IMG/VR virus record: IMGVR_UViG_3300044695_007092
Span: 11,321-75,320 of that record
DNA length: 64,000 nt
Source of the DNA: a virus
Strand: one strand, 5' to 3'
The translations under genes and the position numbers were made by a program. Shown in pieces: positions 8,677 to 64,000 of this stretch. The notes beneath the pieces were generated by a model. That model saw only the letters and a program-made list of their open reading frames with translations. It was not told where the DNA came from and made no database searches. Each line of letters opens with the position of its first letter. Position 1 is the first letter of the stretch.

Positions 8677-8966
8677 TGAGCTATGGAAGTTACTCAGCAG
8701 AGGATGATAAAAGAACAATAGCTTTTTGGATACTAGGAGGCGGGCTTCTTGCCTCTATAGTTCTATTATCGCCTTTTTTCTTTATCTTCGCTCTGGCGGT
8801 TACTTGTGCAATAACTAGAGGACTTGAAAATATAGATGCTAAAAGGCCTGTTTACATGCCAGGTAAGCACTATAGACATTTTCAAGATTCTGTAGAAAGA
8901 GCAGTATCCAGTAAACCTTATAGTAAAATCTATAGGCGAAGGATAAAAAAGAGCCGTTACTATTAA
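8676..8966 (+). CDS. Hypothetical membrane protein
   Basis: Long hydrophobic stretch IAFWILGGGLLASIVLLSPFFFIFALAV; followed by a terminator. Confidence 0.6.
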   Translation: MSYGSYSAEDDKRTIAFWILGGGLLASIVLLSPFFFIFALAVTCAITRGLENIDAKRPVYMPGKHYRHFQDSVERAVSSKPYSKIYRRRIKKSRYY

Positions 8967-8976
8967 TAAATAGAAT

Positions 8977-9011
8977 AGGGCCTTGTCGCTCGTCGCGGCA
9001 AGGCCTTTTTG
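8977..9011 (+). terminator. Intrinsic terminator
   Basis: GGCCTTGTCGC/GCGGCAAGGCC stem plus T-tract. Confidence 0.7.
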
Positions 9012-9032
9012 TACCTGAGCAAAGGAGTTCTC

Positions 9033-9356
9033 ATGATCGATGTTTTAATTGCAACTTTCTTGGCTGCTGTGGCAACTAAAGCGGCCTTGGATGCCTGGTT
9101 TGAAGGAAACGTGTTTGCACTAGCTAGAGCCTATGCAGAAGCATGGAAGTCTTCTGACAGAAAGGTTGTAAGCTTATTTGGAGAGTTGTTATCCTGCCGG
9201 TTCTGTTTAGGGTATCACGCTTCATTTGTATTCTCGATTATATGTTGCCTACTATTAAATAATTGGCTATTTGTACTTCTGGTTGCTTTTGCAGCCCGAG
9301 GAATGGAATACGAGATGGAAAGATACTTAAGGAGCAAATATGATCCCAAAGAGTGA
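9033..9356 (+). CDS. DUF1360-like membrane protein
   Basis: GELLSCRFCLGYH motif between hydrophobic helices; AAGGAG RBS. Confidence 0.6.
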   Translation: MIDVLIATFLAAVATKAALDAWFEGNVFALARAYAEAWKSSDRKVVSLFGELLSCRFCLGYHASFVFSIICCLLLNNWLFVLLVAFAARGMEYEMERYLRSKYDPKE

Positions 9357-10887: not shown

Positions 10888-11379
10888 GTGAATATATTTG
10901 TGTTGTCTCTAGAGCCAAAAGAGGCAGCGCAATGGCATATGGACAGGCATGTTGTTAAGATGCCGCTGGAGTCCGCGCAGATGCTATGCACAGCGCTTTA
11001 TCACCACGGGTACTCATCTCCTTACAAACCAGCGCATAAGAATCACCCTTGTACATTATGGGCTGCCAAGTCTAGATCCAACTTTATATGGCTCTGCCGG
11101 CTAGGATTAGAGCTTTGCGGAGAGTACACTTTTCGATATAAAAAAGAACATAAGTCAGGAGAAGTAATAAGTTTCTGCAAGGATATGAGAATACTAATAC
11201 CTGATGGCCCGCTTACAAGCTTTGCTCAAGCCATGCCTGATGAGTATAAAGATGCGTGTCCTTTGAAAGCCTACAGAGAGTATTACAGAAAAGGTAAGTC
11301 TCATCTTGCTAGTTGGAAAGATAGAGAAGAGCCTTGGTGGTACAAGGACGACAGTAAGAAAGCCGTATTAGGAGATTAG
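10888..11379 (+). CDS. Pyrimidine-dimer DNA glycosylase / endonuclease V family
   Basis: MNIFVL...DRHVVKMPLESAQMLCTA...HKNHPCTLWA...FAQAMPDEYK signature. Confidence 0.85.
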   Translation: MNIFVLSLEPKEAAQWHMDRHVVKMPLESAQMLCTALYHHGYSSPYKPAHKNHPCTLWAAKSRSNFIWLCRLGLELCGEYTFRYKKEHKSGEVISFCKDMRILIPDGPLTSFAQAMPDEYKDACPLKAYREYYRKGKSHLASWKDREEPWWYKDDSKKAVLGD

Positions 11380-21390: not shown

Positions 21391-22113
21391 ATGCGTAAAA
21401 TGCCAGCTAAAGCAAGACATCCTAAGCTAGACGAGGCTTGGGAAAAATACCAAAATTTGATCAGATGGTGGGCAGCTAAGCTAAATAAGTGGTACAGTAG
21501 ACTAACTAGAACAAAAGTAAATGACACAGGTTCGATAATATCGTATCTGTTCTTAAAGCTAAATAATGCTCTCTGGCTATGGGATCCTAAAAGAGGAATT
21601 AAATTCAGCACATACTTTTCAGCTCATATCCACTTTCAGTTCAGAATTCATTATCTAAGATTTGAATCAGACAAAGAAAGTGCCAGCTTTGTAAATAGAT
21701 TCTCGCGTAATAAAACATCATTCAAGTGCAGAGTATACCACGAAACTTTACTACTTCGCTATTGGGGCGAGGGTAGAAAAGAGTCAGGCTTTATTTCTGC
21801 ATATCTTGATATAGAGCACAAAGATAGAAAAGACTATTACAACTGGGTACACGATCTTATAGAAGAACTGGGAGGTGTAGAGAAAGCATGGAAAATCTTT
21901 ACTATGACCATAAATAAAAGATCGGCAGATATACTTCATCGTAGGTTTGTACTAGGTGAAACCCTAGAACAAATAGGCAGGCATTACAAGGTTACAAGAG
22001 AAAGGATACGACAACTAGAATTCTTAGCAATGATGTCTTTAAAGGACAAATTTAAAAACAACAAAAAGCTAGAGGCTCTAGTAAAACGGTACGGTTTAGC
22101 TATCAAAGATTAA
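21391..22113 (+). CDS. Sigma70-family RNA polymerase sigma factor
   Basis: Region 2 WDPKRGIKFSTY and region 4 TLEQIGRHYKVTRERIRQLE. Confidence 0.88.
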   Translation: MRKMPAKARHPKLDEAWEKYQNLIRWWAAKLNKWYSRLTRTKVNDTGSIISYLFLKLNNALWLWDPKRGIKFSTYFSAHIHFQFRIHYLRFESDKESASFVNRFSRNKTSFKCRVYHETLLLRYWGEGRKESGFISAYLDIEHKDRKDYYNWVHDLIEELGGVEKAWKIFTMTINKRSADILHRRFVLGETLEQIGRHYKVTRERIRQLEFLAMMSLKDKFKNNKKLEALVKRYGLAIKD

Positions 22114-48227: not shown

Positions 48228-48255
48228 TAAATTCGGGCCAAAAACGCGTCATAAT
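48228..48255 (+). promoter_or_regulatory. Repeated promoter motif, copy D
   Basis: TAAATT-N16-CATAAT with GCGT preceding CATAAT. Confidence 0.7.
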
Positions 48256-48298
48256 TATATGTTGTCTTATATATGACAACAAGAAAGGAAAGGGTGCC

Positions 48299-48544
48299 AT
48301 GGAGATACTAGGTCTCGCCCTGTTGTTAACCATAGCTTGGGCTGCTTATAGCATCCTCAAGCGGGGTAGAGGTCCAATGCGGCCTTACCTCAAGATAGAC
48401 GGACGACTTAGAGAAGTCGTCCACAGAAAGCGGATAGGCTCTTCGGTCGTGTGTACCGTAAAGCCTTTAGAGAAGGGGTCAAGTAGGCCCCGAGTAATCG
48501 TCCCTGCTGAAGGGGGCGATATTGTCTGGTTACCTAAAAGGTAA
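48299..48544 (+). CDS. Small N-terminally anchored protein
   Basis: Hydrophobic N-terminus; AAAGG RBS. Confidence 0.6.
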   Translation: MEILGLALLLTIAWAAYSILKRGRGPMRPYLKIDGRLREVVHRKRIGSSVVCTVKPLEKGSSRPRVIVPAEGGDIVWLPKR

Positions 48545-48565
48545 CCCATAAGGAGGAGTGGCACG

Positions 48566-49291
48566 ATGCTGCAGATAGAAGGAATTATCGAAAAGGGCGC
48601 TCTCGTTGAAGGCGCCGCTAAGACCCTATTTGGGGGTAAGTTTGACAATAACAGTTGGATGATGTGGTTACCCGACGACGGTCGGGAATTAACATTTAAA
48701 AGCGGAGATATATACTACGAAGAAGGGCTGCTAGCCCTAATAAGATATGGTAATAAAACCATATCGGTTTGGAAGGTAATAGATGGGGTCTTAGAGCCCC
48801 AGGTGGTGTTCATTCCAGCCAAGTTCGGGTTTGGAAAAAACAGAATAATTCCCACTGCCTCGGCGTACGCCGAAGTAGTGATGCAAAACGCAGAAGCTTC
48901 TGACATCTTGGATTTCCTTCCCCTTCCTAGAAGGGTGCTAGGCTTCCGAGAGGCAGATCTGCCAGACGTGGCGGATTTAGATCAAAAGGCCTTGGCCGGC
49001 ATGGCTAGATCTAGCGACCCCTCCAAAATGGAGGCGGCGTACAAAAAGTTCAAGAGGTCTGGGGACCTGGTATTCGTACCAGAAAGTCTGCTACCAGCGG
49101 ACTTTGTGGCTGATTACAATCAGCCATGGTGCCTCGACTTAGAGGGTTTTATAGACAGCGAGCGGTACCCAGTACCGCAGCTTGTATACCAAACCTCCCT
49201 GACGAAACACGGCCTCCATTACAGCGCCGCCACAAATGGCGCCCGTAAGGTAGGAGGAGGCCCAAAAACAAGGAAGAACGGACGCCCTTGA
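48566..49291 (+). CDS. Hypothetical protein
   Basis: AAGGAGG RBS. Confidence 0.65.
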   Translation: MLQIEGIIEKGALVEGAAKTLFGGKFDNNSWMMWLPDDGRELTFKSGDIYYEEGLLALIRYGNKTISVWKVIDGVLEPQVVFIPAKFGFGKNRIIPTASAYAEVVMQNAEASDILDFLPLPRRVLGFREADLPDVADLDQKALAGMARSSDPSKMEAAYKKFKRSGDLVFVPESLLPADFVADYNQPWCLDLEGFIDSERYPVPQLVYQTSLTKHGLHYSAATNGARKVGGGPKTRKNGRP

Positions 49292-49317
49292 TCAAGGCGG
49301 CTCGTTCTTTCAAGTTG

Positions 49318-49779
49318 GTGGTAGAGCGCACTCAACTCTACCGCGACGTCTAGGCCCGTTAAGACTATGTAATTCCTACTGCTAGCAAAAACGTATTAAT
49401 ACCTGCACTTGTAATAGGCGCCGTCTAGGTAGCCTATTAATTGCACGCGTATTTCATGGGATTATGCGACGCAAGGGTGTTAGATTCAGACGGGTCGAAA
49501 CAAAAGCTTGCCCTCACAAGCAAGTGCGTCAGAGTGGCCTAAACGGTACCCCACTCTTGTATATACCGGGTAACTGTTCGGTCTCAGGACCATGCACTCC
49601 CAGGAGTAGCGGGTTGTCTGGGCGGGTTACTGCCCCAAGAATATTGGGGAAAAAGAAGAGCGTTGTGCGGCTACAGCCGTGTTGCCATTAAATCCCCAGG
49701 GAGAGAATGGGATGACGGGTCTGTGCGGGCGTTCTTCTCCAACCAGGGCCGGGCCTAGCAATAGGCCTGGCTTTCTTTT
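49318..49779 (+). ncRNA. Candidate structured ncRNA (~460 nt)
   Basis: GC-rich region tiled with nested G-U-containing helices, ending in a GCAA hairpin plus T-tract. Confidence 0.5.
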
Positions 49780-49792
49780 AGGAGGAAGCTTT

Positions 49793-49978
49793 ATGCAAGG
49801 GATTCTGCAAGCAGAAGTTATCAGCGAGTGGCTTATCGACAAAGCTGTCGAAAGACAGTGTGTGTTGATGGCCCTTAAAGAGGCAGATAAAAAGGGCTGT
49901 GGAGACTTCAGAGTCTTCACGGCAACTGGAAATAATAATAATATAGAAGTGGTATACGTAAAAGTTTACCACGCATAA
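49793..49978 (+). CDS. Small hypothetical protein
   Basis: AGGAGG RBS before ATG 49793. Confidence 0.55.
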   Translation: MQGILQAEVISEWLIDKAVERQCVLMALKEADKKGCGDFRVFTATGNNNNIEVVYVKVYHA

Positions 49979-49983
49979 TACAT

Positions 49984-50032
49984 AAATCACAGTTAGCCTA
50001 GTTATGGCTATCTGTGATTTTTTTTTAGCTAT
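49984..50032 (+). terminator. Terminator ending T9-AGCTAT
   Basis: AAATCACAG..TAGCC/GGCTA..CTGTGATTT plus T-run. Confidence 0.75.
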
Positions 50033-55721: not shown

Positions 55722-56434
55722 TGCGCATAGGCAAGCTATATAACATTCACAAAGGTGAAGACATATACATAGTAGGCACAGGACCTACAGCTAGGATGCT
55801 TCCTAGCAATATACTCTCAGGCAGAATAACTATAGGGCTTAACCAGGCGTACAAGAACTTTAATGTACTGTATTCAATAACCGTTCATCCAGAGCTAGAG
55901 GTTGAGTACAGGGATGTTTTAAAGGCTAATCCTAGTGTTAGCACTAAGTGGATAGTTAAGCAAAAGCCTCCTACAAATCTACCTTTTGATGACCCGGGCA
56001 GATATGTATTTAAGACAAGCCCTGAATGGGCAGGGTTCATAGGCAAGGACAAGGATACCCTTTTCGTTGGAAGAGGTGTGCAGCAGACAGCCATAGATAT
56101 GGCTTGTAGAATGGGAGCAAGGGCTATATTTTTAATAGGCGTTGATATGTCAGATTTAGGTGGAGATCACCATTCTCATAACCAACACGTTAGATTTCAT
56201 GGCCTTCCCCATGAGGACGTTTATTCAGAATATAGAGCATGGACTTATAAATCTAGAAAATTGGCTCGAGAAAAGGCCAAAATTCCTGTATTATCGTTAT
56301 CACCACTTTTAGGGTGTGGCGGTGCGATCCACGATGCTGATTACGTTCAGCTTAGGGATGAGCTTGGCTTGGCTAAGTTGCCAGAGCCAAAAGACACTTC
56401 CGGATATTCCAGAAGTAAAATAGATAACCCTTAG
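55721..56434 (+). CDS. Maf/DUF115-like (sialyltransferase-like) protein
   Basis: HKGEDIYIVGTGPT, TIGLN, MGARAIFLIGVDM. Confidence 0.65.
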   Translation: MRIGKLYNIHKGEDIYIVGTGPTARMLPSNILSGRITIGLNQAYKNFNVLYSITVHPELEVEYRDVLKANPSVSTKWIVKQKPPTNLPFDDPGRYVFKTSPEWAGFIGKDKDTLFVGRGVQQTAIDMACRMGARAIFLIGVDMSDLGGDHHSHNQHVRFHGLPHEDVYSEYRAWTYKSRKLAREKAKIPVLSLSPLLGCGGAIHDADYVQLRDELGLAKLPEPKDTSGYSRSKIDNP

Positions 56435-56448
56435 TTAGGAGTATTATT

Positions 56449-57606
56449 ATGGCGAGCAGGTATGACAATTTGAATACGGCTATTGCAGCTACTGTGGACG
56501 ATAGCAAGAAGAACAAGCCATATCGTATTATCGAGATTGGCGTCCATAAAGCAGCTAGAGCTGTAATGATGGTTAAACTTGCAAAGAAGCTAGGTCGAAC
56601 AAACATAGAATACTATGGATTTGATCTGTTTGAGGACATGACTCCTAGCGTTAATCAAGATGAGTTTGGAAAGCCAGAATTAGCTCTTAGCAGGGAAGAG
56701 GCTAGGAAAAAGATAATTGAAGCCGGTGCTTCTAAGGTGCAGCTTGTAAAAGGCGATACAAGAGTAACCCTAGCGCAAGCTGTAAAGGATATTCCTATTG
56801 CCAATGTTGTATTCGTAGATGGGGGCCACACTATTGAGACTATCGCAAGCGACCTTGAGAACATTCTCAACTGCTGCGGTGAAAAGACTCGCATTCTTTT
56901 GGACGACTGCTATCCAAGCGTATATGACAGAGGGTGTGCATTCTTAGCTAAGTGTTTTAGTATTCTGAAAGAATACGGCATTACGATGGAAGAGCTACAT
57001 CCTGTAGACGTTTTTGAAAAGAATCCCTACGGCGAAGGTTCGCTCAACGTAAGAATTATGTCGTTAAGGTGCGCAGCTCAGTTAACTCCAGCAAAGCTTG
57101 AAGGTTTAGGCTCTAAGCTGATCTACGAAGCAAACCCTTCAGGGCCCGAACCAAAAGAATTCTTCCCTGAGAAGTCCTTCGTAGAAACGAAAAGCGAGGC
57201 CAGCGAACCTGCTGGAGAGACCTTTCAACCCGCTGATAGCAGCTGTGATACCGACGTACAACCAGTTCGAGTATGCGAGAATAGCTGTGGAAACCTTCCT
57301 GGAGAACACTGCGAACGGGCTAGTGATACTTGTGGACGATGGGAGCCCCCATTGGAAGCCAGAAGCGTGGAGCAAGTTCCCGAAGAACAAACTCCTGTTG
57401 TACAGGTTCCCGAAGAACGACAAGAACCTGACCAGATCGTGGAACCAGGGAATCCGCTTGGCCTTGGAGCACCATGCTCAAGTGATAATAGCGGGGAACT
57501 CAGACCTGAAGTTTCCCCAGAACTGGAGCAAGGGAATAATAGAGGCTCTAGAAGAAGGCGCAGGCGTGGTAGGGCCGATGACGAACGCTCCGGGCCACAG
57601 GCCTAG
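56449..57606 (+). CDS. Class I SAM methyltransferase (Methyltransf_24-like) with disordered tail overlapping the next gene
   Basis: IIEIGVH, YYGFDLFE, LVKGDT, FVDGGH, LLDD. Confidence 0.78.
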   Translation: MASRYDNLNTAIAATVDDSKKNKPYRIIEIGVHKAARAVMMVKLAKKLGRTNIEYYGFDLFEDMTPSVNQDEFGKPELALSREEARKKIIEAGASKVQLVKGDTRVTLAQAVKDIPIANVVFVDGGHTIETIASDLENILNCCGEKTRILLDDCYPSVYDRGCAFLAKCFSILKEYGITMEELHPVDVFEKNPYGEGSLNVRIMSLRCAAQLTPAKLEGLGSKLIYEANPSGPEPKEFFPEKSFVETKSEASEPAGETFQPADSSCDTDVQPVRVCENSCGNLPGEHCERASDTCGRWEPPLEARSVEQVPEEQTPVVQVPEERQEPDQIVEPGNPLGLGAPCSSDNSGELRPEVSPELEQGNNRGSRRRRRRGRADDERSGPQA

Positions 57607-57967
57607 ACAACACGTCAGTAGGTTCGTCAGCAGCTATGTTGTCGACGACTCTGATAGTTACATCTCAAAGATATCCAACCTTCTTTATAAAGAGAAGGTT
57701 GGATGCACTGAGAAAGGCCCTCTAAACGGCTTCTGTCTTGCAGCTAGGGCTGCCACATGGAAGGCAGGGGCTTACAGCTTATCGAACCATCACTTCTTTA
57801 ATCCTAAGTTCAAGATGACCCGCAATGAAGATGAGCTTATGGGTAGATTTAAGAAGCTAGGAATAAGCAGCCGCATAGCTTGTTCTAGTTTTGTGTTTCA
57901 TTACAGAGGTGTTACCAGACATCCTTCCGGAAGAAGCGCCGGCAAGGGTCATTTAAGGATAAAGTAA
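57233..57967 (+). CDS. Glycosyltransferase family 2 (start uncertain; possibly frameshift-fused to the upstream gene)
   Basis: LIAAVIPTYN, LVDDGS, WNQG, GNSD, VGPMTN, NEDE, FVFHYRG. Confidence 0.8.
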   Translation: MIAAVIPTYNQFEYARIAVETFLENTANGLVILVDDGSPHWKPEAWSKFPKNKLLLYRFPKNDKNLTRSWNQGIRLALEHHAQVIIAGNSDLKFPQNWSKGIIEALEEGAGVVGPMTNAPGHRPRQHVSRFVSSYVVDDSDSYISKISNLLYKEKVGCTEKGPLNGFCLAARAATWKAGAYSLSNHHFFNPKFKMTRNEDELMGRFKKLGISSRIACSSFVFHYRGVTRHPSGRSAGKGHLRIK

Positions 57968-58587
57968 TGAGGTACTGGAAACCTAGGAAGATAAGCCCAG
58001 ATTCCAAGGTTTGCATATCTGTGGTGACCTACAATCAAACAGACTGCCTATCCTCTTTGATTCACGCATTAAAAGCTCAAACCTTTAATAACTTCAGTGC
58101 GTATATACTTCACGATGGGCCATGGTCTTCTGCCGCCAATAGGTGTTATGTAAACGCCGTTGATGGTGACTCTAGATTTTTTCAAATGAATGGAGCCATC
58201 AGGCAGGCTAAGTTCGGTCACGCTTTAAGGCAGGTAGGGTTTGATAATGGTATAAAGAACGGCTGCAACTGGTTATGCACTATGAATGCAGACTGCTGGT
58301 ATGCCCCTGTATATTTTGAATGGATGCTAGGCTCAGCCCATGAAAATAAATCTAACTTTGTTTACTGTAACCTGGTTCACAGTCACAAGTTATGGAAACC
58401 AATGACCTCAGAACTAAAGAGAGGCTCTATAGACGCAGGTAACTGGATAGCGGATACTGGCTTAGTGGGTAGCACTAAATGGGAAAGCACCGACTTCGCT
58501 GCAGACTGGACGTACATAAGTAAACTTAAATCTAAACCCGACTTTAGGCCCAGTAAAGTCGATGGTTATATATTTACACACAACTGA
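57967..58587 (+). CDS. Glycosyltransferase family 2
   Basis: ISVVTYNQ, ILHDG, MNADCWY, AADW. Confidence 0.78.
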   Translation: MRYWKPRKISPDSKVCISVVTYNQTDCLSSLIHALKAQTFNNFSAYILHDGPWSSAANRCYVNAVDGDSRFFQMNGAIRQAKFGHALRQVGFDNGIKNGCNWLCTMNADCWYAPVYFEWMLGSAHENKSNFVYCNLVHSHKLWKPMTSELKRGSIDAGNWIADTGLVGSTKWESTDFAADWTYISKLKSKPDFRPSKVDGYIFTHN

Positions 58588-58589
58588 TT

Positions 58590-59630
58590 ATGAAGATAGG
58601 CTTCGATGTACAGTATAAACCTCACGACGCCGTCTACGCAGCGTTGAGGTTATCTGATTCATTGAGGTATCTTGGATACGATACAACTCTATTTAGTAAC
58701 AAGACCCCTAAACACAATTACGGTTGCGGCTGGGACAAGCTGGTCATAACTCCAAAAGATATGTCATATGATAAATGGCTACTAGGTCTTAGCCATGTAA
58801 TATGGCCTGTACCTCCTAATAAAGATGTTGTACAGAAAGTAGGTAAGTCTATAGTTACCATAGCTTTATCTCCATGGGACTGCCTTCCAGGTTATGTAAA
58901 GAGCTCTTTAAGGCTGTGTGCCCATGTAGTTACGCCATGCCTTGAGAACTCAGACACAGTAAGGAAAGAAGCCAATATTAGAGACGTCTCCACAATTGAG
59001 TGGGACAGCTCTATACCCATGACCAAAAAGGATTTAAATGATATAGATCCTAGCAGGCCTAAGGTTCTTATACCTTTGCACTCTAGCCAAGGCCTTAGAT
59101 GCGACTTGGAAATCCTATGCAACATAATATCAGGCATAGCGGAGAAAAGCCCTCAAGCTGATATAACCATATCTTATAGTCCTAAGAGTATGCCATGGGA
59201 GGTAAGGAAGTCTTTATTTAGTTACCTCAAGAAGCATAAGAATATAAAAGGCGTAATAGATGAGACAACTTGTACTAGTTCCTTACTGCTTTATGGGTAT
59301 AGTGATATAGTATTGTGGCCTGCTGAGATTGAAGGTTTTGGCTTAGTGGGAATAGAGTCTATCTACATGGGCACACCAGTAGTGGCCTATGACATACCCC
59401 CAATGTCAAATATAATAACAAATGGAGTTAACGGTATGTTAGTGCCGTGCGACGATGGAGGCTCTAAAGGCGGAGTTATGTATGCAGAGCCTAATCCATC
59501 TGAGTTTATAAAAGTGGCGACTGATGCCATAAATGAAAAAATACTGGCACTTAACAAGAATACTAAGGTAGGCAGGCGATCAGTTAGAAGCATGTTTTAC
59601 TCACAGTGGAAGAAGTTAATAGAGGGCTAA
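58590..59630 (+). CDS. Glycosyltransferase family 4 (GT-B)
   Basis: EGFGLVGIES...GTPVVAYDIP...ITNGVNGMLV. Confidence 0.85.
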   Translation: MKIGFDVQYKPHDAVYAALRLSDSLRYLGYDTTLFSNKTPKHNYGCGWDKLVITPKDMSYDKWLLGLSHVIWPVPPNKDVVQKVGKSIVTIALSPWDCLPGYVKSSLRLCAHVVTPCLENSDTVRKEANIRDVSTIEWDSSIPMTKKDLNDIDPSRPKVLIPLHSSQGLRCDLEILCNIISGIAEKSPQADITISYSPKSMPWEVRKSLFSYLKKHKNIKGVIDETTCTSSLLLYGYSDIVLWPAEIEGFGLVGIESIYMGTPVVAYDIPPMSNIITNGVNGMLVPCDDGGSKGGVMYAEPNPSEFIKVATDAINEKILALNKNTKVGRRSVRSMFYSQWKKLIEG

Positions 59631-59633
59631 CAC

Positions 59634-59999
59634 ATGGATGTTCTAGCTGTAAGACAAGAAGAGAAGCTGTGGGGCCGCAACCATATTATTCATTTGGATA
59701 ATTCCTTTCAGATCTGCCACATACATATCCTTAAAGGCGGATACTGCTCTAATCACTTTCATCAGAACAAGTGGAATCAATTCTATATTGTCTCGGGTAG
59801 ACTGATGGTCAGCTGCTATAACCCAGATGGTACTATAAAGAGCACCATCATTCTTAGACCTACCGAGTGCATCAAAGTACCACCTGGCTTAAACCATAAG
59901 TTTGAAGCTTTAGAAGAGACTGAAGCTTTGGAGATCTATTGGTCTGAGCTATCTGAGCACGATATTGTGCGTACAGACGTAGGCGGCATCAAGGCTTAA
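59634..59999 (+). CDS. Cupin, sugar isomerase-like
   Basis: KLWG, CSNHFHQNK, VPPGLNHKFEALE, DIVR. Confidence 0.8.
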   Translation: MDVLAVRQEEKLWGRNHIIHLDNSFQICHIHILKGGYCSNHFHQNKWNQFYIVSGRLMVSCYNPDGTIKSTIILRPTECIKVPPGLNHKFEALEETEALEIYWSELSEHDIVRTDVGGIKA

Positions 60000-60023
60000 T
60001 TCAACCCATAATAGTGTCATAAT
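59996..60023 (+). promoter_or_regulatory. Repeated promoter motif, copy A
   Basis: TTAATT-N16-CATAAT. Confidence 0.7.
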
Positions 60024-60224
60024 ATAGTGATACCGATAGGTATTAGCCCAATCGAGATAGCGGCTTTAAAGGTACTCGTAAGCCCAACTGACTGTTCCTG
60101 TCAGGTTGGTAATATGGCCTAGGAACCCTCCAGAGATAGACCAGCGTAATTGGTCTCTGGTGGAGGTAGAGCTGGTCTCCTCTATTGGTGGGAAGAATCT
60201 CCAAAGAAGGATGTAAATTCCTTC

Positions 60225-60251
60225 CGTCTTGAGCAGGACGTTAAACTGCTT
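60225..60251 (+). repeat. Pseudoknot motif copy 1
   Basis: CGTCTTGAGCAGGACGTTAAACTGCTT. Confidence 0.85.
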
Positions 60252-60272
60252 CATTTGTAGTTTATCGCTGGT

Positions 60273-60299
60273 GTCCTGAGTAAGACTTTAAACTGCTCA
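60273..60299 (+). repeat. Pseudoknot motif copy 2
   Basis: GTCCTGAGTAAGACTTTAAACTGCTCA. Confidence 0.85.
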
Positions 60300-60445
60300 T
60301 ATTTATGGCACCGGAGGTAAAGCCCTCTGGCCGTGCACGCCGGCAGCGTGGTAGGAAACCCACCAAGGAAATGGGGTATGGATGAAACTTCCATATATCT
60401 CCCTATACCCACGGGAGATATTGCTCGCACCTTGAGGGAAGGTGC

Positions 60446-60473
60446 CGTCCTGGAGCAGGACGTTAAACTGCTC
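60446..60473 (+). repeat. Pseudoknot motif copy 3
   Basis: CGTCCTGGAGCAGGACGTTAAACTGCTC directly before the T-run. Confidence 0.85.
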
Positions 60474-60495
60474 TTTTTTTAGCTATCACACACTC

Positions 60496-60523
60496 TTAAT
60501 TCAACTAATAAGTGCGTCATAAT
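60496..60523 (+). promoter_or_regulatory. Repeated promoter motif, copy B
   Basis: TTAATT-N16-CATAAT. Confidence 0.75.
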
Positions 60524-60594
60524 GATATGAAAGCGTAGGTATTAGGCAAGCTCGATAGCTTGTCACCTATGTGAGTATATACATGGAGGTTCTC

Positions 60595-60900
60595 ATGACT
60601 ACGTTAGTAAAATCCTTATTGCCTTGCGTAACGGTATCTCAGTCCCTGCGCAGAGAAGGTTTCAAAAGAGTGATAGGATATGGTTCGAACTCTGCAGAAA
60701 TCAGACCAAATAAAAGATTGTGCGGAGTAATGATTGATGTAGATGTACAGTCAGGAGTGTTCTCTTGTGTCCTGCTAAACGACTGGGACGATTCGTCCTG
60801 CATGTACATGAGCTCTAATTTGCAGCAAGACCAGTTCGCCAGCGAAAGCTGGAGTGAATTGGTACAGTGGATAAAGCAATCCCCAAGAAGGATTGCTTAA
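60595..60900 (+). CDS. Hypothetical protein (cassette B payload)
   Basis: GGAGG RBS. Confidence 0.6.
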   Translation: MTTLVKSLLPCVTVSQSLRREGFKRVIGYGSNSAEIRPNKRLCGVMIDVDVQSGVFSCVLLNDWDDSSCMYMSSNLQQDQFASESWSELVQWIKQSPRRIA

Positions 60901-60903
60901 TTT

Positions 60904-60953
60904 AAGAAACACATCATGCCTTCGGGTGTGGTGTGTTTCTTTTTTTAGCTATC
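60904..60953 (+). terminator. UUCG-capped terminator ending T7-AGCTATC
   Basis: 17-bp stem, cTTCGg loop. Confidence 0.9.
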
Positions 60954-60973
60954 ACACATCCTATCTCGTTATG

Positions 60974-61001
60974 TTAATTGGACTTATAAACGCGTCATAA
61001 T
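60974..61001 (+). promoter_or_regulatory. Repeated promoter motif, copy C
   Basis: TTAATT-N16-CATAAT. Confidence 0.75.
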
Positions 61002-61070
61002 AGTATGAAAGGATAGGTTATCAGTCATCTAACAGGTGACGCCTAATCTTAGTTGTTCATGGAGGCTAAT

Positions 61071-61334
61071 ATGAACATGAATATTGCGAATTATGTACTT
61101 TTAGACAAGCTCTCTAATTTGTATGCAGGTGATAACTGCGACGGGCTGGTATTCGTCGCAACTGTAGACCTTGATGGTGGTGATCGTTTTAAGTATGCTC
61201 CTTGGGTGCCAGCCACCAAGTCTCAAGAGGACGTCTATTGGGTCGCCCGTAAAAGTGCAGAGGATTTTGGTAAGGAGTCTTTCTGCGCTGAAACTGGTGA
61301 GTCATCATACCACTGCACCTGCGGGTGGCATTAA
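61071..61334 (+). CDS. Hypothetical protein (cassette C payload)
   Basis: GGAGG RBS; C-terminal HCTCGWH. Confidence 0.6.
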   Translation: MNMNIANYVLLDKLSNLYAGDNCDGLVFVATVDLDGGDRFKYAPWVPATKSQEDVYWVARKSAEDFGKESFCAETGESSYHCTCGWH

Positions 61335-61338
61335 AATG

Positions 61339-61365
61339 CGTCCTGAGCCGACGTTAAAGGGCTCA
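61339..61365 (+). repeat. Pseudoknot motif copy 4 (covarying)
   Basis: CGTCCTGAGCCGACGTTAAAGGGCTCA. Confidence 0.8.
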
Positions 61366-61388
61366 CAGCGTATGAGCGTATGCTGTTG

Positions 61389-61435
61389 ATCAACCTTACT
61401 CCTGGGCGGAGTGAGGTTGATTTTTTTTAGCTATC
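61389..61435 (+). terminator. Terminator ending T8-AGCTATC
   Basis: ATCAACCTTACTCC/GGAGTGAGGTTGAT stem. Confidence 0.88.
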
Positions 61436-61492
61436 AGACACTCCTATCCTAGGTTATCATTCAAGTAACTACTTTAATGAGGTGCCAACGAT

Positions 61493-61822
61493 ATGGAATG
61501 GCTTGTCATCCTTGCTGTCATTACGTTGTATGCATCATCTTTAATACTGTGCTATAGCGATTCAATAAGAAATGCTTGGTACTATCCTCTTCTATCTATA
61601 GCCATAGGCATAATAGTATCCACAATGTGGGTACTCGGTGTCAGGCTTGCAGACAATAAAGAACGAATATTCTTCTTCAGCCTATGCTGGGAATTTTCAG
61701 TTATCTTTATAGACTATGCAATACCTCTTGCTTTCTTTGGCTTAAATGTTAATAAGTATGTAATATTAGGTTCTCTTCTCGTAGCCACAGGATTGGTTAT
61801 AATGAAGTTGAACATGAGATAA
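61493..61822 (+). CDS. Four-helix membrane protein (SMR/DMT-like size)
   Basis: Four hydrophobic segments in 109 aa; C-terminal ILGSLLVATGLVIM. Confidence 0.55.
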   Translation: MEWLVILAVITLYASSLILCYSDSIRNAWYYPLLSIAIGIIVSTMWVLGVRLADNKERIFFFSLCWEFSVIFIDYAIPLAFFGLNVNKYVILGSLLVATGLVIMKLNMR

Positions 61823-61847
61823 GCGCTTTTAAAGAAAGGTTGTTTAG

Positions 61848-62225
61848 ATGGCTAATCTATCATTTTGGAAAGATTCAGTAGGATTTGGTGTTTATACCAA
61901 GGATGACCCTGATCTATTGTCATGGCTGTATGTACAATGGGTTAAGAAAGAAAGTCCTGATGAAGCTACCTCTGCAAGCGTTATTAAGTTCCTAGAGTTC
62001 TCAAGTAACCTTATTAGTCAAAAACCTGTTGTGGCCATGGAGTACATTGATAACGGAATTGCTGTTATTTTATCTACAGGGGAAAAGATTCCATTTAATA
62101 AGTCCAGTACAGTAAAGCAGCTAGTTACATCTGTAAACGTAATGGGGGCTTCAACCTCAATGGCTGGCCCTAGAGTAGACCCTCAAGTTGATACTTCTAT
62201 TCCTATAACAGGTGAGGCCCGATAA
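61848..62225 (+). CDS. Hypothetical protein
   Basis: AAAGG RBS. Confidence 0.55.
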   Translation: MANLSFWKDSVGFGVYTKDDPDLLSWLYVQWVKKESPDEATSASVIKFLEFSSNLISQKPVVAMEYIDNGIAVILSTGEKIPFNKSSTVKQLVTSVNVMGASTSMAGPRVDPQVDTSIPITGEAR

Positions 62226-62467
62226 TGAAAAAGACTAATACACATAACCTTAAGCTATACACCGGTGAAGAGACTGAATCATTCCTTGAGGGATTAGTAG
62301 ACGAATTTCTACATATTTCATTAAGTAAGAATAGAACATTAGCACCCGAAGAGGCAGAACTTGTTCAAAAGCACTTTGATGACTTTATTTCATTCTGTGT
62401 GGCCACTTCATCTGGTAAAATTGTATTAGATAACGGAAAAATGACACCATTTGTTAACCCTAGGTAA
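62225..62467 (+). CDS. Hypothetical protein
   Basis: TAATG coupling. Confidence 0.55.
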   Translation: MKKTNTHNLKLYTGEETESFLEGLVDEFLHISLSKNRTLAPEEAELVQKHFDDFISFCVATSSGKIVLDNGKMTPFVNPR

Positions 62468-62471
62468 CATA

Positions 62472-62750
62472 ATGAGCAAATATAATAAAAATGATGCAGT
62501 AAAGAAAATGGTAGACCTTCTTAACAAAGATGCTCATTGCGGCTGTGGCTGCAGTAGCTGTGTTAAGAAGGCTGCCATATCTACACTGGGGGCCATTGGA
62601 TCTAATTTTAAAAAACTTACACCGTCAGCCGTAAATGCAAATGATATTTCTGCTAAACCCATGCGGCAGAAGCAGTTAGGTCAACAACAAAATAATCCTT
62701 ATTTGAACAATTATAGCTCGCAAACTCCTATAAACACTGGTAGTATGTAA
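62472..62750 (+). CDS. Hypothetical protein
   Basis: ORF with HCGCGCSSC. Confidence 0.5.
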   Translation: MSKYNKNDAVKKMVDLLNKDAHCGCGCSSCVKKAAISTLGAIGSNFKKLTPSAVNANDISAKPMRQKQLGQQQNNPYLNNYSSQTPINTGSM

Positions 62751-62911
62751 ATTGTTAGCCCATCCAATCGACGTAAGTCCTTATGTGACTTCTACTTAGC
62801 CAAAATTTTATTAAAATTTTAAGCATTTTTTACTTATCATTGATTTAAATCAGGCTAAGTAATACAAATACATAGTTCCTAGATAGCCATGTTCATTACA
62901 AGGGGTTGATC

Positions 62912-63754
62912 ATGTCGAAGAGCAGTAAGTCGGTAACGGCAGAGGAGCTAAAGAACTTGTATCCTGGCCTCTCTTTGTTAGAGGGGTACGATGCAGCTCT
63001 TGTTGGAGTAGTCGCCTCAGCAGATAATTCGTTTATACCGGTATATGACACCTTTGCGATTATAGACATCATCTATAATATGGGCTTCGAATCAAAGGAA
63101 GACCTTAAAAGCTACTTCTTTAACCTAGTCAATGAGTCAAAGAAGGGCGGCATAGGTCCTATGTTCATTCAGTCTGCCAAGCTGCATACTAAGAATTCTA
63201 AAGGCCATAATAAACCACCAAAGCCCCCTATCTCCTTCGACCCTAAAGACACTGAGATATTCTCTGAAGAAGAAAACAAGATACTGGAAGAGGCATTAGA
63301 CTCTTTAGAGGCCATGGATACAGAAGATTCAGTATGGCACGATGAGGACGACAGTGACTTTGGAGCCTATGTTGACGATGAGGACCTTGATCCTCCATTT
63401 GGCTATAAATACACAGATAGCGCAGCGTACGACTCTGACTCTGATAGTGATGAGTCATTCAAGGCAGATAGCGATGACAGCTATGAGTATGGTGAGGAAG
63501 ATGACGAAGAAGAGGACGAGGATGAAGATGAAGATGAAAATAAAGAGTACGAAAGTTTGCTAGAGCTTGAAGTTTACCTAGGTAATAGTAATCCATATGA
63601 CTGCATACTTAGTAAAAATAAGAAAGACATAATGCAGGCTATAAGGCTATTCTTTCCTAATCTTGAAAACCTTAGAGATATAAAGCGAATACACTTTCTA
63701 TTCGATGGCGCAGAGATGGAAGAAGACGAAGAGGACGACCAAGAAGAAAATTAA
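62912..63754 (+). CDS. Highly acidic protein
   Basis: Long D/E tracts in the C-terminal half. Confidence 0.65.
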   Translation: MSKSSKSVTAEELKNLYPGLSLLEGYDAALVGVVASADNSFIPVYDTFAIIDIIYNMGFESKEDLKSYFFNLVNESKKGGIGPMFIQSAKLHTKNSKGHNKPPKPPISFDPKDTEIFSEEENKILEEALDSLEAMDTEDSVWHDEDDSDFGAYVDDEDLDPPFGYKYTDSAAYDSDSDSDESFKADSDDSYEYGEEDDEEEDEDEDEDENKEYESLLELEVYLGNSNPYDCILSKNKKDIMQAIRLFFPNLENLRDIKRIHFLFDGAEMEEDEEDDQEEN

Positions 63755-63790
63755 TGTAGACTAGATCCTGCAATACTATAGAATAACGCC

Positions 63791-63999
63791 GTGCTGATTT
63801 ATTACTTAGCCGAGAGTGTCGGCTGGTTAGGCGCAGTCTGGCATGGAAGCCATACTATACTGCGCAGGTACCCGCATCGTGGCGAAAGCTTTAAGATGTG
63901 GCAGGCGGGGTGGGCAGCTTACACTCATATATGCTGGCCCTGAGCTCTAAGAGCCGTAGGTCTTCGGGAAGGGGATCCGAAGAGGTATTAGATCAGCAC
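63791..63999 (+). ncRNA. Multibranched structured ncRNA (~210 nt), possibly manA-motif-like
   Basis: 17-bp closing helix 63791-63807/63983-63999, six internal hairpins, GAGTGT/ACACTC loop-loop complementarity. Confidence 0.65.
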
Positions 64000-64000
64000 A

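Follow-up and report, generated by a model that had tools for sequence, protein, structure and literature searches.

The window analysed here is a 64,000-nucleotide (nt) stretch of viral DNA, positions 11,321 to 75,320 of the IMG/VR record IMGVR_UViG_3300044695_007092, and is the last 64 kb of this 75,320-base contig, which has a CheckV completeness of 36%. Positions 60030-60487 of the window hold cassette A, and the best explanation we can offer for it, with moderate confidence in the whole of it including the stability mechanism set out below, is a gene of a large lake phage whose product is a non-coding, densely folded RNA of about 450 nt. The layout of the RNA is 5' hairpin - K0 - alpha body - K1 - K2 - beta body - K3/terminator, in which K1, K2 and K3 are pseudoknots, K0 is a divergent knot-like element and the two bodies are structured domains. 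Judged by its sequence relationships, the RNA is a member of an uncatalogued mosaic RNA family. Related cassettes free of open reading frames (ORFs) were found in three IMG/VR loci (L012, L014 and L019) and one metagenome contig (L138), all four from related lake phages. The main features are given below, with scores in bits from two models: R1, a covariance model of the knot, and R2, a model of the beta core.

59996 to 60023, plus strand: cassette promoter-like element TTAATT-N16-CATAAT, with a likely start near G60029/A60030.
60030 to 60043, plus strand: 5'-terminal hairpin ATACC-GATA-GGTAT, present in the minimum free energy (MFE) fold, invariant in the window, L138 and L014, and found also in L019 and L012.
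60045 to 60078, plus strand: K0, divergent knot-like element with S1 AGCC/GGCT, spacer TTAAAGGTA and S2 CGAG (60053-56)/CTCG (60075-78).
60079 to 60225, plus strand: alpha body, a multi-hairpin domain that shows compensatory changes and has 91% identity to L138 and 74% to L014.
60226 to 60251, plus strand: K1, H-type pseudoknot GTC-ttGAGCAG-GAC-GTTAAA-CTGCTT without U-tract, R1 43.8 bits; the same copy occurs in L014, L019 and L138.
60273 to 60299, plus strand: K2, H-type pseudoknot GTC-cTGAGTAa-GAC-TTTAAAC-TGCTCA, R1 42.3 bits.
60305 to 60446, plus strand: beta body, R2 63.3 bits for its core.
60447 to 60480, plus strand: K3, the cassette terminator, GTC-ctgGAGCAG-GAC-GTTAAA-CTGCTC (knot 60447-60473) followed by T7 (60474-60480), R1 41.9 bits.
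60481 to 60491, plus strand: conserved end motif AGCTATCACAC after the T-run; T7-AGCTATCACAC spans 60474-60491 and repeats at cassettes B and C.
61340 to 61385, plus strand: K4, in cassette C, GTC-cTGAGCC-GAC-GTTAAAG-GGCTCA (knot 61340-61365), then an 8-bp hairpin CAGCGTAT-GAGC-GTATGCTG, R1 38.0 bits.

The original prediction, a note made from the letters of the window, had described a promoter and an end motif enclosing no credible ORF, and so a cassette that expresses RNA only. Both motifs recur at cassettes B and C. The 29-nt promoter-like element is repeated at 60495-60523 and 60973-61001 and precedes every cassette in the relatives, and the T7-AGCTATCAC end together with the promoter is common to the array cassettes and bounds 60030-60487. 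A generic scan for sigma-70 promoters and terminators called neither the cassette promoter nor K3, the latter because of its 9-nt loop. ORFs on the plus strand of cassette A reach at most 49 amino acids (aa), and none has a conserved start or ribosome-binding site (RBS). The lack of a conserved ORF, the compensatory changes in the modules and the matching contigs in four RNA libraries (below) all agree with an RNA-only cassette.

The MFE of the plus strand is -170.1 kcal/mol, where dinucleotide shuffles gave -140.0 +/- 6.1 (z = -4.95; 0/100 shuffles as good), and the minus strand gives z = -4.59. All six hairpins that had been listed in the prediction are present, the first of them within the alpha body:

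60206 to 60224: GAAGGA-TGTAAAT-TCCTTC, a GNRA-like hairpin of the alpha body.
60311 to 60330: CCGGAGG/CCTCTGG.
60336 to 60350: CACGC/GCGTG (P_a).
60377 to 60395: TATGGA-TGAAACT-TCCATA, a beta hairpin.
60396 to 60420: (A)TATCTCCC/GGGAGATA(T).
60427 to 60445: GCACCTT/AAGGTGC.

The comparison with Rfam 15 that had been suggested with the prediction gave no family at gathering threshold in the window or in the relatives' cassettes, and at E <= 10 the matches in 59900-60650 were at chance level only (MIR5516, AaHKsRNA22 and LOOT among those rejected). ARAGORN detected no tRNA or tmRNA, and a search for antisense targets in the rest of the 75-kb contig gave no complementarity beyond chance 11-12-mers.

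The three predicted pseudoknots proved to be real, and a further copy (K4) and the variant K0 were added. A 15-nt core GAC-K-TTAAAC-TGCT lies at 60237, 60284, 60459 and 61350, and K1 to K4 follow one plan, GTC - loop - GAC - GTTAAA(C) - tail, with loop and tail complementary and with the A-rich GUUAAAC strand lying across stem 1. The loop/tail pairs are GAGCAG/CTGCTT in K1, TGAGTA/TGCTCA in K2, GAGCAG/CTGCTC in K3 and TGAGCC/GGCTCA in K4, and in relatives TGCA/TGCA, TTAGTA/TGCTAA, TGTGCA/TGCGCG and CTGAGTAG/CTGCTTAG; in K2 both loop and tail differ from those of K1 with the complementarity kept, and those of K4 covary with K1-K3. Over 14 distinct copies stems 1 and 2 were 89.9% paired, against 30-57% when the 3' partners were slid. 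Stem 2 alone had 86.6% of its cells paired, and four of its seven pairs were changed on both sides. The covariation score was 0.232 vs 0.129, and none of 500 shuffles reached this score or the percentage of pairing. Stem 1 (GUC/GAC) is G-C in 14 copies, U-A in 12 and C-G in 13, the last being the closing pair, and positions T19, A20 and A21 of the knot are invariant. K0 was identified by eye, R1 giving no match there; in L138 and L019 the two sides of its S1 are both altered, giving GGTC/GACC, and L014 has GTCC/GGAC with TTTAAAC at the same place.

R1 gave exactly four matches in the window, all on the plus strand within 60224-61371, and its matches in five whole relative records were confined to the same cassette array. 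In a 190-kb relative of 92% completeness, both R1 copies are terminators of coding cassettes. Knot plus T7 ends protein-coding cassettes of the relatives 5-8 nt after their stop codons, and a knot stands at this distance from the stop codon in six coding cassettes. Copies with a U-tract thus end cassettes, and copies without one sit inside RNA cassettes (K1, K2) or in a 3' untranslated region (UTR), as K4 does, which starts 6 nt past the stop codon of cassette C and upstream of that cassette's own terminator. On this sequence distribution the knot is a general element of the cassette array. Stop-codon readthrough or frameshifting at the knot was considered and dropped, as the reading frame relative to the knot is inconstant in the six coding cassettes. 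The 15-mer TGGATGAAACTTCCA was tried in IMG/VR as a family probe and was non-specific, drawing 116 mostly unrelated loci (L020-L132). Used as a random control of about 1 Mb, these loci gave no match to R1, the sample being small and R1 tuned to the window family; a generic coremin-like architecture (see below) was found there 27 times in real and 23 times in reversed sequence, which is no excess, and none of the hits carried GAC-GTTAAAC.

The bodies between the knots are also conserved as structures. Three further hairpins belong to the alpha body and one to the beta body:

60084 to 60109: alpha hairpin CCAAC-TGAC/GTCA-G-GTTGG.
60131 to 60159: alpha hairpin CCAGAGA/TCTCTGG.
60167 to 60184: alpha hairpin TAGAG/CTCTA.
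60353 to 60365: beta hairpin P_b, AGG-AAACCCA-CC(A).

In L138 and L019 a C-G pair of the first of these is replaced by U-A, with the pairing kept. Two candidate loop pairings of the alpha body were seen by eye, GUUCC 60094-98 with GGAAC 60122-26 and ACCAGC 60140-45 with GCUGGU 60171-76, the latter sites reading GGCUAGC:GCUAGCC in L014; as they are based on two or three sequences, we treat them as leads. The beta core is common to nine distinct copies in five genomes. Its first part is a 3-bp stem, NGG/CCN', that carries the 7-nt loop YWACCNR; next come a linker rich in G and the hairpin NNGGA-UGNAANU-UCCNN, in whose loop a GNAA tetraloop with one additional base can be read. It was 93.8% paired, against 36-49% when slid, with three pairs changed on both sides and 0/500 shuffles as good. 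In the window and relatives R2 matches only ORF-less cassettes. The 60370-60490 side has 95% identity to L012, matching L012 8267-8386, and in further 3' beta hairpins the loop AGUAACUAC is kept with wholly different stems (CTACGCCA/TGGCGTAG vs ACGTCC/GGACGT).

Relatives were found via the neighbouring glycosyltransferase, at eight IMG/VR loci with 52-83% protein identity. All eight carry the same array, in which each cassette opens with CTTAATYC...GTCATAAT and closes with a T-run and AGCTATCA, and the contents differ; the composite motif T7-AGCTATCA...CTTAATYC..GTCATAAT flanks every cassette of the window and the eight relatives. The RNA cassettes share modules and not the whole RNA, and module order differs among phages. 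Window 60000-60297 is 91% identical to L138 and 74% to L014, and L019 carries the 5' domain together with the K1-K2 part, the alpha body being absent. Of the matches from the metagenome scan, one (L138) is a true homologue and six are due to chance. ORF-less cassettes with shared modules thus persist in five genomes, and the glycosyltransferase is only 60-83% identical among the four IMG/VR contigs (L138 ends before this gene and is outside that comparison).

Such arrays resemble the hyperplastic regions of T4-type phages flanked by promoter-early stem-loop (PeSL) elements, where a composite terminator and promoter motif surrounds small swapped cassettes (PMC2839356, PMC4122927). In both, a motif of this composite type flanks small variable cassettes and relatives differ by whole-cassette swaps. 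The motif sequence of the window phage is unrelated, however, its terminator is a pseudoknot, and some cassettes hold RNA instead of ORFs.

Matching sequence was found in environmental RNA libraries. We searched runs with sampled words of 59600-61450: 18 lake DNA metagenomes hold at least a quarter of the words, seven of them at least half (two of the seven possibly being the source), and six metatranscriptome runs hold 5-7%. Four RNA runs, from three lake studies and one estuary, were then compared against 56000-64000 with an 88% identity cut-off. Every one of them gave a contig 98-99% identical to 60066/60075/60078-60250, a span corresponding to the alpha body with K1, and contig depths were 11-43. 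The contigs of X19 and X20 extend about 155 nt past 60250 into CGGCGTCTCAC.GCCTTACAGTGAGTGGCT, a module that follows a knot in L014 and L138, which means that this RNA came from a relative whose modules are ordered differently. In the estuary run there was a contig 100% identical over 60369-60413 (beta core) and another over 60208-60249, and X22 had one over 60225-60276. These contigs establish presence in RNA libraries of four studies, short of proof of a defined transcript.

No contigs of the four runs fell on the cupin gene, the glycosyltransferase genes or cassette B, and cassette C had one X23 contig of low depth (3x) and about 90% identity over the last ~20 nt of its ORF and the 3' UTR. 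Absence on the flanks was not used as evidence, because the flanks of relatives may diverge past the cut-off. Two contigs, in X19 and X20, border directly on an Illumina adapter at 60078 and 60066, where stem 2 and stem 1 of K0 have their 3' edges; the reverse transcriptase may have stopped there at the knot, or the RNA itself may end there, and this is a weak hint. A low-complexity coding stretch of acidic repeats at 63493-63538 draws dozens of unrelated metatranscriptome contigs, and these are no sign of phage expression.

The knots closely resemble the coremin and xrRNA-WCC types of exoribonuclease-resistant RNA (xrRNA) and, by this likeness, are probably a new variant of them. The coremin motif is GUCCGAAGACGUUAAACUAC (PMC10520033); it needs a hairpin of 3-5 bp with a YGAD/YGNNAD loop, a pyrimidine-purine closing pair and a conserved 10-nt spacer, and the hp2 hairpin directly after the spacer is required for Xrn1 resistance (PMC6546385). 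In the xrRNA-WCC variant three Watson-Crick pairs replace the non-canonical contact of loop and spacer (PMC10321173). Elements of these types are carried by beny-, cucumo- and other eukaryotic RNA viruses and stall 5'-3' exonucleases and ribosomes (PMC6546385, PMC10520033, PMC10321173). Like coremin, the phage knots have a 3-bp GUC/GAC stem, a C-G loop-closing pair and a pyrimidine right after GUC (13/14 copies); they share GUUAAACU.C, and the spacer GUUAAACUGC of K1 and K3 (UUUAAACUGC in K2, GUUAAAGGGC in K4) agrees with coremin GUUAAACUAC at nine of ten positions. Like xrRNA-WCC, the loop pairs antiparallel with the 3' part of the spacer or with the tail by Watson-Crick pairs, though stem 2 has 4-8 bp where three are published. 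As in both types, copies occur in tandem. Unlike coremin, one phage knot (K3) doubles as an intrinsic terminator, and the carrier is a double-stranded DNA phage of bacteria, hosts without Xrn1. The principle of an exonuclease block can apply in bacteria, since the bacterial RNase J1 is stopped by a flaviviral xrRNA, which acts as a mechanical obstacle of a general kind (PMC5760640). A literature search found no report of a natural xrRNA in a phage or bacterium, these being described for eukaryotic RNA viruses only.

From this likeness, and from that to 5' stem-loop stabilisers, a mechanism can be proposed. The 5'-terminal hairpin with K0 would protect the 5' end of the RNA, K1 and K2 would shield the beta body, and K3 with its U-tract would be both a pseudoknotted intrinsic terminator and a 3'-end cap. 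The knots would act as coremin-like mechanical blocks to movers in the 5' to 3' direction, for instance an exonuclease of the RNase J type, RNase E when scanning, or helicases. With each structured body shielded in this way the RNA would be long-lived and accumulate, and by this analogy we believe that the RNA of cassette A is probably very stable. The alpha and beta bodies would then be the working parts that probably hold or sequester a host or phage factor, a step suggested by their conservation alone. Of the earlier interpretation as a polyvalent decoy or sponge, the RNA-only part stands and the part about CsrA/Rsm is not supported (below); a stable decoy or sponge RNA is plausible from the knots' likeness to xrRNAs.

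Several points weigh against this mechanism. Nuclease resistance is a prediction from likeness, and the partner of either body is a putative one. The knot loops are 7-9 nt long (e.g. CUGGAGCAG, UUGAGCAG, CUGAGUAA, CUGAGCC, CAUGCAU) and do not fit YGAD/YGNNAD: a pyrimidine comes first in 13/14 copies, and G is not second. An hp2 equivalent is absent at K1, and K3 has the U-tract instead; an hp2-like hairpin of 8 bp follows stem 2 of K4 at 0 nt, and such hairpins lie 7 nt downstream at K2 and 0-4 nt at some relatives' copies. In the coding cassettes of relatives the knot comes last of all, and no sequence follows it that it could protect, so a plain terminator or 3'-cap role may be the main one. 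From the RNA contigs neither strand nor ends nor level can be read, and DNA can be present in RNA libraries. The family is known from five genomes only, and the covariation of the alpha body rests on few sequences.

Stable non-coding viral RNAs headed by xrRNAs are known as subgenomic flaviviral RNA (sfRNA) and as BNYVV ncRNA3 (non-coding RNA 3 from beet necrotic yellow vein virus). The RNA of cassette A is like them a non-coding viral RNA with several knots of nuclease-resistant type ahead of structured domains, and by analogy it may also accumulate and act on host factors. In contrast, it has its own promoter and is not a decay product, and its fold class is unlike the ring of flaviviral xrRNAs. 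We tentatively speculate, without holding it to be the likelier outcome, that it is a phage-made 'sfRNA', a promoter-driven decoy armoured with coremin-class knots, which is abundant and jams or titrates RNase J/RNase E or another host factor. If this is true, plant RNA viruses and phages would use the same tiny xrRNA fold, also as a pseudoknotted terminator, and the mechanism of exoribonuclease resistance would extend to prokaryotic RNA decay. It would also supply bacterial engineering with a small natural element that stabilises RNA and acts as a terminator, and define a new family of environmentally expressed non-coding RNAs, and the partner of the two conserved bodies could reveal a new phage-host interaction.

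The explanation that survives best beside a stable decoy is a precursor with punctuation, in which one RNA is cut at the knots, or trimmed as far as them, by host or phage RNases into small stable alpha and beta RNAs with knot-protected ends. Each body is indeed flanked by knots, the GTTAAACTGC motif coincides exactly with borders between modules, both in relatives and in RNA contigs, e.g. at 60250, and the two contig ends that border on an adapter (60066 and 60078) are found at K0 edges. However, the X19 and X20 contigs cross K1 from the alpha body for about 155 nt into the next module, contigs are uninformative on ends and processing, and the adapter-bounded ends may come from the reverse transcriptase. 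We regard processing of this kind as rather unlikely; it overlaps with the stable-RNA reading.

Less likely still is a functionless relic of cassette shuffling, the debris of cassettes that recombination would have fused at their shared terminators, with knots that are terminators deprived of their U-tracts. It would account for K1 and K2, which look like terminators lacking the T-run, for the same knot with T7 at the end of relatives' coding cassettes and for a mosaic array like the PeSL-flanked T4-type regions (PMC2839356, PMC4122927). A relic does not agree with an alpha body conserved at 98-99% in RNA contigs of four studies while the flanks differ, with the compensatory changes in hairpins and knots and the fold z of -4.95, or with the persistence of ORF-less cassettes with the same modules in five genomes.

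Type III antitoxins are arrays of small pseudoknots, and pseudo-ToxI mimics such an antitoxin. By comparison, the repeated pseudoknots of cassette A could neutralise an endoribonuclease of host abortive infection, and the knot does occur 3-5 times per RNA with an invariant A-rich strand. But tandem near-identical repeats (~34-40 nt were sought) are absent, the knots being spaced 47, 175 and 891 nt apart; no toxin-like or defence-like gene is a neighbour, and the same knot also ends ordinary mRNAs. A decoy for a toxin or defence nuclease is thus quite improbable.

The original prediction had further proposed that GGA motifs titrate host CsrA, with 13 GGA triplets, a count that we confirmed for 60030-60487 and that exceeds the 6.8 per 458 nt found window-wide. 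The excess is not significant against dinucleotide shuffles (9.2 +/- 2.1, with 13 or more in 65/1000), 12 of the 13 are wholly or partly in predicted stems, including those of the conserved hairpins, and the only GGA fully unpaired in the ensemble, at 60122 in UAGGAAC, can pair with the conserved hairpin loop GUUCC. There was also no Rfam match to CsrB or RsmX/Y/Z. Like CsrB/RsmZ sponges and ToxI, the RNA is a multi-module structured RNA proposed to titrate a protein, but it has neither their GGA-in-loop array nor tandem identical repeats, and no Rfam match, so a CsrA/Rsm sponge is very improbable. The same low standing applies to small peptides such as 60378-60482 (35 aa), whose ATG lies 6 nt past AAGGAA: L012 lacks AAGGA, a 1-nt indel shifts the C-terminal frame, substitutions follow stems and not codons, and the start is inside a conserved hairpin.

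Several other likenesses, to lambda boxB pentaloops, the GAAA tetraloop/11-nt receptor, box C/D, pistol and preQ1-I folds, were dropped for lack of support, as was one to the repeat handle of type I-C clustered regularly interspaced short palindromic repeats (GUGGAUUGAAAC vs GUGGAUGAAAC).

Cassette A lies directly 3' of a glycan operon ending in a glycosyltransferase and a cupin gene (59634-59999), and it is the first unit of the small-cassette array, followed by cassettes B and C, which carry ORFs behind GGAGG sites. Its neighbours had no Pfam or PADLOC hit. The cassette B protein (60595-60900, 101 aa) is kept in L015 and L016 (103-105 aa) and has no Pfam, PHROG or PADLOC match. In L012, the closest relative, a short cassette at 8788-9050 has a coding-type leader and RBS, an ORF of only 15 codons, then a structured G-rich stretch and a knot terminator, and so may have decayed or be of the RNA type. 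A unit at 48228-50032 of the window shares its promoter type (48248) and its end motif (50022) with the array cassettes, and after a 241-aa ORF it is GC-rich (~0.50) and ORF-poor over 49292-50032, with no match to the knot or beta-core model.

As the 92%-complete relative has 190 kb, the window phage is expected to have about 190-200 kb. It encodes a gpA-type large terminase, a family A DNA polymerase, a primase and an SbcC-like ATPase, and also many glycosyltransferases and a sigma-70 region-4 protein. INPHARED phages gave no DNA match to the stretch. The nearest terminase of an isolate is only 30% identical, and this phage is not T4-like. The phage protein with sigma-70 region 4, encoded at 21391-22113, could read the non-canonical cassette promoters TTAATT-N16-CATAAT.

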